From: a virus
Lineage: Duplodnaviria; Heunggongvirae; Uroviricota; Caudoviricetes
Reading direction: 5' to 3' (one strand)
IMG/VR virus record: IMGVR_UViG_2529292919_000012
DNA: 15,345 nucleotides
Below are positions 1-3,000 of this stretch, one piece after another. A program made the position numbers. Every line of letters begins with the position of its first letter. Within the stretch, counting starts at the first letter, position 1.

Positions 1-3000
1 AATGAATACACAGTGCTTATTCGTACTAATAAAACACCCAATTTTCTGTTTCTTGGTTGTGTCCAAAGTTATATTCAATATCTGGTGTTGATGTATCAAT
101 ATTCTTCATCCCATCAACAAGAGTTGATACAACAGCCAAATCTTGTTTGATTCTCATCAAATGGTATTTCTTTCGGCGCAATAAACTTTCAATGGCAAGT
201 TTCTTCGTCGGGAATGCAAAAGATCTTTCTGCATTTTTTGCTACTTTCTTAATTGCATATCTATTTCTCCTTTGTTTCCATTCCTGTAACCACTGATTTG
301 GTGCTGGTTTAAAATTAACAATCCAATGCGCAGGAACCAACCATGCATAATGCTCTGTCTGATGAAAAGCTATATATTGAAGTGCGAATATTTTGATCCC
401 ATCTTCTTCAACTGTCGCCTGGAATCTCCAGAAAACAGGCATTCCATCATGTTCAGTTTCTGATTCAGGAAAAGGTACGCTCCATGATTTTGTCATATCT
501 CACCTCAAATAAGTGGTTTGCTGCCTAATTTCATTTTCTGGCGACCAACACAAGTCATCTTGCTGTCAGTTGTTTGGATTTCCGGTAGCCTGCCGCGTAA
601 ATGGCTACGTTTGGAAGACATACACCAGTTTCTGGTTGCTTATGTCCAAACTCATTCGCGTACACAATGGCCGCTCGCTCCAGATTGCGTCTGTATTCTT
701 TCTGTTGCCAGATCACGTCCTGTGCTATGAACTTAATTGGCTTAGCGTCTTCTATGCGCTCAGGCGTTTCGTGAGTACCTTTAGCCTGAATCTGCGCTCT
801 GCTTAGAGTAGGGCGGTGTAATACTTCTGAACTTATTGCTTCTTCGCGGGCCAGTACGCCGTTAGCTAATGCCTTTGCCTTTAAACGCTCACGACGACGA
901 GAACGTGAATTGCCTTTGAACTGAGTTCTGCGTGTCATATAGACCTCCTGATGAACTTTGGTGGTGTGGTCGGTGGGAGACCCATTTCGACCTGTTTCGG
1001 CCTACTTCAATTCGGCAATAGTCCCGCAGGCCTCGCCGCTTTACGTGCGACATATTCCCGTCCATGAACCCTTCACCACACCCCAAAGTTCACTTTGGTT
1101 ATTGCGCTTTGTCAGCGCCGTAGATTCTTGCTTGAATCGTTGTATATTCACCGCCCTGGTGAGTAGTGCGTCCTGCTGATGTGTTTAGTATCACCGACAG
1201 TGGTATTTATGTCAACACCGCCAGAGATAATTTATCACCGCAGATGGTTATCTGTATGTTTTTTATATAGATTTATTTTTTTGCAGGGGTGTGTGGCTTG
1301 GGAGGTGATCGAGAGATCTGAATTGCGATGTTTAGTGAGTTGTATCTATTAATTTTCAAATAAATACAATTGGTTATGTGTTATTGGGTGAAGGGGATCG
1401 TGAGGTAAAGAAAACCCGGCGCTGAGGCCGGGTTGTGTGTTACTTAAGAACGAGTCCGTTTAAGGCATCAAGGATTTTGGAAACATAACTTCCAAAAATG
1501 TAGGCGCAAAATGCGAACACGAAACTGACAACGACCGCAGATGCCTTGATGGTGATTTTTGCTGAGCTAATGCTTGTCTCAATACCTGACAGACGAGAAT
1601 CTACAGATTTTATATCTGACTTTACTTCAGCGAGATCGCGCTTGATGTATTCAACATCAGACTCTAGCTTTGCAACTCTAGCCTCAAGCATGTTACCTCC
1701 GCCGTTTCCTCCACCATGCCGTGAGTATGCATCATCAGTGGAATAGTGTCCAATTGGGCGAGATATGTTTTGATTTGGACGAAGCTGAGCAACCTTGTTA
1801 TCTAAACTCATCGCGAACTGATCCTGTTATCTTCACGTCAAAAAACGAACTTTTTACATCAATTACTTCGCCTTTATCAGGATTAACCAGTGATGCTCTA
1901 ACTTCGAATATCCCAGGCTTGATAATTTTCACCCTTGGGAAGTTAATTCTCATAGAAGTTGATACGATGGTTTCTCCATCGTTGGCTTCTGCTACCGTAA
2001 AAAACTTATGGTTGGAGTACAGTTTTGTGTCAATTGGTATCGGTATTTCTTGAGCATTGAAAACCTCAATGCCTATGGAATATTTTTTTGTAGCCTTAAG
2101 GCCGATAAAAAAAGCGCCAAATGATAGATCCACTTCATGGGAGTCTTTATCCATTTCATAGATAAGAACTGGAGTTACTGGGTTGCCTTCATCCATCGCA
2201 ATCGGAATGATATAAGAAATACGTTCTTTAATCATTTACGTGTTATCCAAACGTCTCTTCAGGCCACTGGCTGGCGATAACTTTCCCCATAACGGAACAA
2301 CTCTCATTGCATGGGATCATTGGGTACTGTGGGTTTAGTGGTTGTAAAAACACCTGACCGCTATCCCTGATCAGTTTCTTGAAGGTAAACTCATCACCCC
2401 CAAGTCTGGCTATGCAGAAATCACCTGGCTCAACAGCCTGCTCAGGGTCAACCAGAATTAACATCCCGTCAGGAAAACTAGGTTTGGATCCTGTTGGCGC
2501 GGTCATGGAATTACCTTCAACCTCAAGCCAGAATGCAGAATCACTGGCTTTTTTGGTTGTGCTTACCCATCTCTCCGCATCACCTTTGGTAAAGGTTCTA
2601 AGCTCAGGCGAGAACATCCCGGCCTGAACATGAGAAAAAACAGGGTACTCATACTCACTTCTAAGTGACGGCTGCATACTAACCGCTTCATACATCTCGT
2701 AGATTTCTCTGGCGATTGAAGGGCTAAATTCTTCAACGCTAACGTTGAGAATTTTTGCAAGCAATGCGGCGTTATAAGCATTTAATGCATTGATGCCATT
2801 AAATAAAGCACCAACGCCTGACTGTCCCATCCCCATCTTGTCTGCGACAGATTCCTGGGATAAGCCAAGTTCATTTTTCTTTTTTCATAAATAGCTTTAA
2901 GGCGACGTGCGTCCTCAAGCTGCTCTTGTGTTAATGGTTTCTTTTTTGCGCTCATACGTTAAATCTATCACCGCAAGGGATAAATATCTAACACCGTGCG

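Follow-up and report, generated by a model that had tools for sequence, protein, structure and literature searches.

Does the lambdoid prophage of Escherichia coli DEC1D lack a functional CI repressor, or does its sequence record lack one adenine? As recorded, cI is interrupted at a short run of A, and the interruption can be read either as a mutation of the strain or as an error of the assembly. The window analyzed here is 15,345 nucleotides long and is the entire contig AIEY01000029.1 of draft genome GCA_000249115.2, from strain DEC1D, sequenced in a project on the diarrheagenic E. coli (DEC) collection. The coordinates of the features discussed are given in Table 1.

Table 1. Features of the DEC1D prophage contig that bear on the state of cI, in window positions.
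Feature	Position	Strand	Remarks
OL/PL region	1165..1235	-	OL3-OL2-OL1 read directly
Lambda/HK97-type cI	2243..2955	-	713 nt recorded; 714 nt and 237 aa with A7
197-aa downstream ORF	2243..2836	-	EHU28647.1, "repressor protein CI" (DEC1D); Pfam Peptidase_S24
57-aa upstream ORF	2782..2955	-	25 true CI residues and an out-of-frame tail
A6 run, frameshift site	2880..2885	-	A7 in relatives; from alignments
OR1-OR3/PR/PRM control region	2965..3040	.	operators read directly
cro	3056..3256	+	intact, 66 aa; PF09048
Toprim primase/helicase fragments	4741..5544 and 7453..8580		
IS21-family element in the toprim primase/helicase gene	5531..7483	-	340-aa transposase and IstB
A5 run in rusA	10752..10756	+	A4 in all relatives; private to DEC1D
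Extra T in TfpB-family gene	14045	+	GTGTCC vs GTGCC; breaks the gene; private to DEC1D
A6 run in the same TfpB-family gene	14194..14199	+	A7 in relatives; private to DEC1D

The cI gene is read from the minus strand, starts at ATG 2953-2955, and contains a run of six A residues that appears as T6 on the plus strand. Its upstream ORF encodes 25 residues of CI followed by 32 out-of-frame residues before a stop. Translation in the downstream frame can proceed from ATG 2836 as far as the stop at 2243 (197 aa, MGMGQSG...); just 5' of the run this frame is shut by a TGA at 2887-2885. In a 181-nt alignment with the cI genes of HK97 and E2348/69, the sole difference is one missing A (A6 vs A7); the run aside, the whole DEC1D gene differs from that of E2348/69 by 1 nt. 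Addition of one A to the run yields a 237-aa CI that matches the HK97/E2348-69 protein apart from V223M and presumably differs from lambda CI at three residues. The preliminary description had placed the start at this ATG and the A-run one base short, as the ORF reading and the 181-nt alignment both bear out. It had also described the rest of CI as intact in a shifted frame behind a TGA, which is where that codon was found, and had predicted that A7 would give an intact 237-aa CI, as the repaired translation does. The open frame it reported from MGMGQSG onward stands, but the count is 197 codons and not 196.

The 197-aa product lacks helices 1 and 2 of the DNA-binding domain, its start falling inside the helix-turn-helix. 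Its only Pfam match is Peptidase_S24 (PF00717), with HTH_3 not among the matches, and weak LexA/UmuD NCBIfam matches likewise indicate that the C-terminal S24 domain is present. The lambda/HK97 type of CI is LexA-like, with HTH_3 and Peptidase_S24 domains, whereas the DEC1D frame as recorded is interrupted after codon 25. Intact sibling CIs have both domains, and restoring the single A supplies the N-terminal helix-turn-helix in DEC1D. The motifs VQAGMF, GNSM and FKKL are readable in the CI translation; we take them to be the A111-G112 cleavage site, S149 and K192 of lambda CI. The 57-aa frameshift peptide had no match in an exact look-up among called genes. The exact peptide is known from one record, a UniParc entry, and strain TA054 has a variant of it that differs at one residue.

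The same prophage was gathered from ten other assemblies by look-up of the cII and HNH proteins of the window. Three of these are sisters from the DEC project: AIEV (DEC1A), AIEX (DEC1C) and AIFC (DEC2D). The run is A7 in UFZD, UGEE, DEC1A, DEC1C, NJMD, JANHLX, NJJB, CABEEY and NHYP, and within this prophage lineage it is A6 in DEC1D and DEC2D only. Codon 223 is ATG in DEC1A and DEC1C, which have A7, and also in DEC1D and DEC2D, which have A6. The repaired CI with V223M is found intact on 19 contigs, those of DEC1A and DEC1C among them. The 197-aa CI and a 105-aa TfpB fragment occur in the NCBI record of DEC1D only, neither being present in any independent Logan assembly; the right primase fragment, like the TfpB fragment, is on record in the NCBI contig alone. 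The Logan contigs of the presumed DEC1D runs SRR094164 and SRR094165 cover only window positions 3599-5556 and so stop short of cI.

The cI run is one of several places where the DEC1D contig departs from its relatives by a single base. Over about 13.4 kb, 5 substitutions separate the window from UFZD01, a nearly identical NCTC assembly. Five 1-nt indels separate them as well: three runs are shorter by one base in the window, T7 to T6 in cI (2880), T8 to T7 (12383) and A7 to A6 (14194), and one base is gained in rusA (A4 to A5, 10752) and at 14045 (an extra T). An 11-way alignment of the prophage leaves three substitutions private to DEC1D, together with five 1-nt indels relative to the consensus. 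Four of these five indels are in homopolymers, and three disrupt genes that other assemblies have whole. All four DEC-project assemblies show 4-6 single-base indels apiece, and different genes are affected: N, a 145-aa gene and cI are broken in DEC2D, the HTH_36 gene in DEC1C, and the 145-aa gene in DEC1A. The gene breaks of DEC2D (L022, AIFC01000012.1) and DEC1A (L024, AIEV01000040.1) are all at 7-base runs. In the Illumina-era sequences NJMD, NJJB, JANHLX and Logan SRR040463, differences are confined to a 21-bp tandem repeat, with SRR040463 differing also at the 12382 run.

Run lengths were counted across the prophage (~13 kb) in the four DEC-project assemblies and compared with those in Illumina-era and PacBio assemblies. 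Eight of 44 7-nt runs are off consensus in the DEC project (about 18% per run), every one contracted from 7 to 6, compared with 0 of 38 in the Illumina-era assemblies and 1 of 36 in the PacBio assemblies. The DEC excess is significant by Fisher's test against the Illumina-era set (p = 0.006) and against all non-DEC assemblies (p = 0.0015), and it persists when the DEC1D cI call is left out (p = 0.004). The contraction at 2879 joins DEC1D with DEC2D, while those at 1276 and 2083 join DEC1A with DEC2D. Taken together, the contracted runs show all four gametes, so the changes have arisen more than once and were not passed on by descent. Sporadic run lengths that depart from the clade pattern are probably sequencing errors, and clade-consistent ones are taken as real (PMC4746626). 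Private substitutions in the DEC assemblies are somewhat above the Illumina-era level. A mismatch-repair mutator was considered as the source of the run-length changes and rejected: transversions account for two of the three private DEC1D substitutions, and the contractions are spread over four strains of one project in a way that does not follow phylogeny.

Outside this lineage the A6 allele is rare. It is present in one of 469 complete E. coli genomes that have the 71-nt segment, that of the O157 strain AR-0428, where the cI gene is labeled "frameshifted" by PGAP. The AR-0428 allele and that of the window are set apart by 20 other differences, and the A6 of AR-0428 is therefore independent. 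The only metagenome contig in which the run is A6 is covered 1x and shows two more contracted A-runs in the same gene; its A6 is clearly a read error. A6 is also present, in different prophage backgrounds, in two IMG/VR contigs from drafts of other isolates, one of which (L030) has contracted runs at two further sites. Some of the A6 calls on other cI alleles, such as those of AR-0428 and TA054, may be real.

The prophage does carry genuine damage. The IS21-family element splits a toprim primase/helicase gene that every sister assembly has in full (626 aa), and sister strains have a copy of the element, with 100% identity, at another place in this prophage. The left junction of the element is found also in the Logan assemblies SRR094164 and SRR094165, for which reason the insertion is taken as a real DEC1D-specific replication knockout. 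In rusA (10648-11011), an AAG to TAG nonsense change at about 10783-10785 lies in the true frame and is common to the whole O55:H6-type prophage lineage, so rusA is a real pseudogene. The A5 run of the same gene was examined as a further sign of real decay and set aside, since in the alignment it is private to DEC1D and only the TAG is lineage-wide; it is probably an artefact. The TfpB-family gene (13700-14458) is recorded as 119-aa and 80-aa ORFs, produced by a +1 and a -1 indel with 150 nt between them. L009, L012, L021 and L023 have the gene whole (247 aa), and both DEC1D indels are probably artefacts.

Other genes of the prophage vary in ways of their own. The HTH_36 replication-initiator-like gene (3857..4633) contains a 21-bp tandem repeat, GGTGGGGCAGGAGCTGCCCGG, at 4148-4190, which encodes a Gly/Ala-rich linker. 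Its copy number differs among strains, giving products of 243, 251, 258 and 265 aa, and it is a real in-frame VNTR. Between ninH and Q, at 11408-12367, lies a moron that encodes an LpxR-family lipid A deacylase of 319 aa. At the 3' end of cII (3651-3660) the window differs from E2348/69 and HK97 by an in-frame indel of 3 nt (KKRPVCKTERSDQ vs KKRPAATERSDQ); the variant is common to many genomes (1118 index blocks) and is a natural allele.

The immunity region has the arrangement of lambda and HK97, with which DEC1D shares the OR and OL operators, a divergent cro, PRM and PR, and OL 5' of N. N (127 aa), Q (229 aa), cro and cII are intact. Two of the three substitutions private to DEC1D fall in the control regions. 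The first, a C to T change at 3007 between OR2 and OR1, turns the PR -35 hexamer TTGACT into TTGATT. None of the ten sister assemblies, of the 391 complete E. coli genomes that have the segment, or of the IMG/VR viral contigs has it, and it may be a genuine down-mutation of PR, the lytic promoter. The other, at 1197, alters the central base pair of OL1 within the PL spacer (TACCACTGGCGGTGATA to TACCACTGTCGGTGATA) and is absent from the 271 complete E. coli genomes with that segment and from the IMG/VR viral contigs. Control regions make up ~1% of the aligned sequence, and the chance that two of three private substitutions fall there is ~4e-4, a value calculated post hoc. The clustering of private substitutions in both early operators keeps alive the scenario of a real loss of CI, an argument tempered by the somewhat higher number of private substitutions in the DEC assemblies.

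We conclude, with a probability of about 85%, that A6 in DEC1D is an assembly artefact, that the true state of the run is A7, and that cI is intact in the strain. This conclusion follows from the A7 of sister strains with the same V223M, from the tendency of the project to contract 7-base runs, and from the four other indels on the contig. It is favored also by the rates, a miscall frequency of about 18% per run against a natural A6 frequency of about 0.2%, the latter possibly itself inflated by error; the weighing gave a generous prior to cI having been truly inactivated by this very slippage. A true A7 would have been undercalled as A6 in flow-based (454-type) reads, the chemistry being inferred, and the undercall would then have been carried into the consensus of the 2011-12 draft assembly. 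The same laboratory in that period used 454 Titanium with Celera for one genome and Illumina with Velvet for others. The DEC1D contig runs through the 1.95-kb insertion sequence, where de Bruijn assemblies of what appear to be the source runs come to a stop; this is weak and indirect evidence that paired-end 454 reads were assembled with Celera. DEC1D resembles 454/Ion Torrent-type drafts in that a single-base change in a run of at least six splits an otherwise perfectly conserved gene, has other run changes beside it on the contig, recurs sporadically within the project but not in assemblies of this prophage from other platforms, and departs from the clade pattern. Of the two options left by the preliminary description, the homopolymer error is thus favored by the A7 of the sisters, the 7-to-6 bias of the project and the other indels on the contig. 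The suggestion that real loss would fit a prophage defective anyway is weakened, since only the IS insertion and the rusA nonsense codon are demonstrated and N and Q are intact.

A real and recent A7 to A6 slippage specific to DEC1D, which would kill CI in a decaying cryptic prophage rendered harmless by its other lesions, is unlikely, but it is the most probable of the alternatives. A7 runs are genuine mutational hotspots, and spontaneous cI frameshifts of the clear-plaque type arise by the same slipped-strand loss in a mononucleotide run; AR-0428 may be a real example, and A6 alleles do occur on unrelated cI backgrounds. The split primase/helicase, with its junction in two Logan assemblies, and the TAG codon shared by the rusA genes of the lineage are real damage, and the two private substitutions in the PR -35 and OL1 suggest selection on early-gene control. 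Together with the IS21-family insertion, these two changes would suit a prophage whose repression is lost or being escaped. Against this stand a 7-mer error of about 18% per run in the project, far above the natural 1 in 469, the phylogenetically incongruent recurrence of the same call in DEC2D, and a cI gene that is, run apart, one nucleotide from that of E2348/69. A lambda prophage that has lost CI but retains N and Q expresses kil and the lysis genes, which is toxic or lethal. With N and Q intact, a CI-less DEC1D prophage should therefore be toxic, and a real null would need more silencing lesions or a second imm-lambda repressor. Clear-plaque frameshifts in such a background would normally induce the prophage and kill the host, and the error model fits DEC1D better. 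Single changes in the PR -35 and the PL spacer would not, to judge from lambda biology, silence promoters of such strength. Still less probable, and in our view very unlikely, is a coordinated and selected rewiring in which A6 is real, the repressor is lost, PR carries a -35 down-mutation, OL1/PL is altered, replication is knocked out by the IS21-family element, and residual CI is perhaps made by -1 slippage.

Two further readings are each highly improbable. One holds that A6 is real and that full-length CI is made by a -1 slip of peptidyl-tRNA-Lys on A_AAA at the AGA codon, or by slippage of RNA polymerase. A -1 shift at GAA_AAA_AGA would give AAG AAA AAT GAA, the wild-type ...YEKKKNEL..., E. 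coli uses AGA rarely, and the RNA ~10 nt 3' of the site folds better than shuffled sequences (z = -3.06). DEC1D is in this respect like the -1 frameshift sites of dnaX and insertion sequences at A_AAA_AAG, with an A-rich run followed by G and a predicted stem ~10 nt on. Unlike those sites, its A6 is out of register (GAA_AAA_AGA), the arrangement occurs in no relative, and conserved stimulators were not identified. The zero frame, TAT GAA AAA AGA, contains no X_XXY_YYZ heptamer, so that only single-tRNA P-site slippage would be available, and A6 is shorter than the runs that give appreciable transcriptional slippage. The run is in-frame A7 in every relative, which speaks against selection for recoding; the fold downstream is made up of ordinary cI codons, and the reading needs A6 to be real in the first place. 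Programmed recoding was accordingly rejected as the main explanation on account of the register, the A7 of relatives and the coding origin of the fold. The wild-type A7 gene itself has an in-frame canonical A_AAA_AAG with a predicted stem-loop ~9 nt on (2871-2790, minus strand; z = -3.06), where a -1 shift would stop after two codons. The other reading, a culture of mixed A7 and A6 cells whose consensus took a minority or near-equal A6, fares no better. A bubble at the run that broke contigs would also leave the 197-aa ORF out of every independent assembly. A cI-null subpopulation should be counter-selected, and the project-wide contraction of runs at many loci accounts for A6 without heterogeneity.

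On the artefact reading, GenBank entries EHU28647.1 (DEC1D, 197 aa) and EHU48478.1 (DEC2D, 195 aa) are most likely artefactual truncations of CI, and calls of pseudogenes or of a "defective prophage" in the 2011-12 DEC drafts need read support at runs of 6-7 or more. If the frameshift were nevertheless real, it would mean that a lambdoid prophage persists without its repressor, which bears on prophage domestication, and if the coordinated rewiring were true, DEC1D would provide a natural snapshot of the stepwise disarming of a lambdoid prophage.
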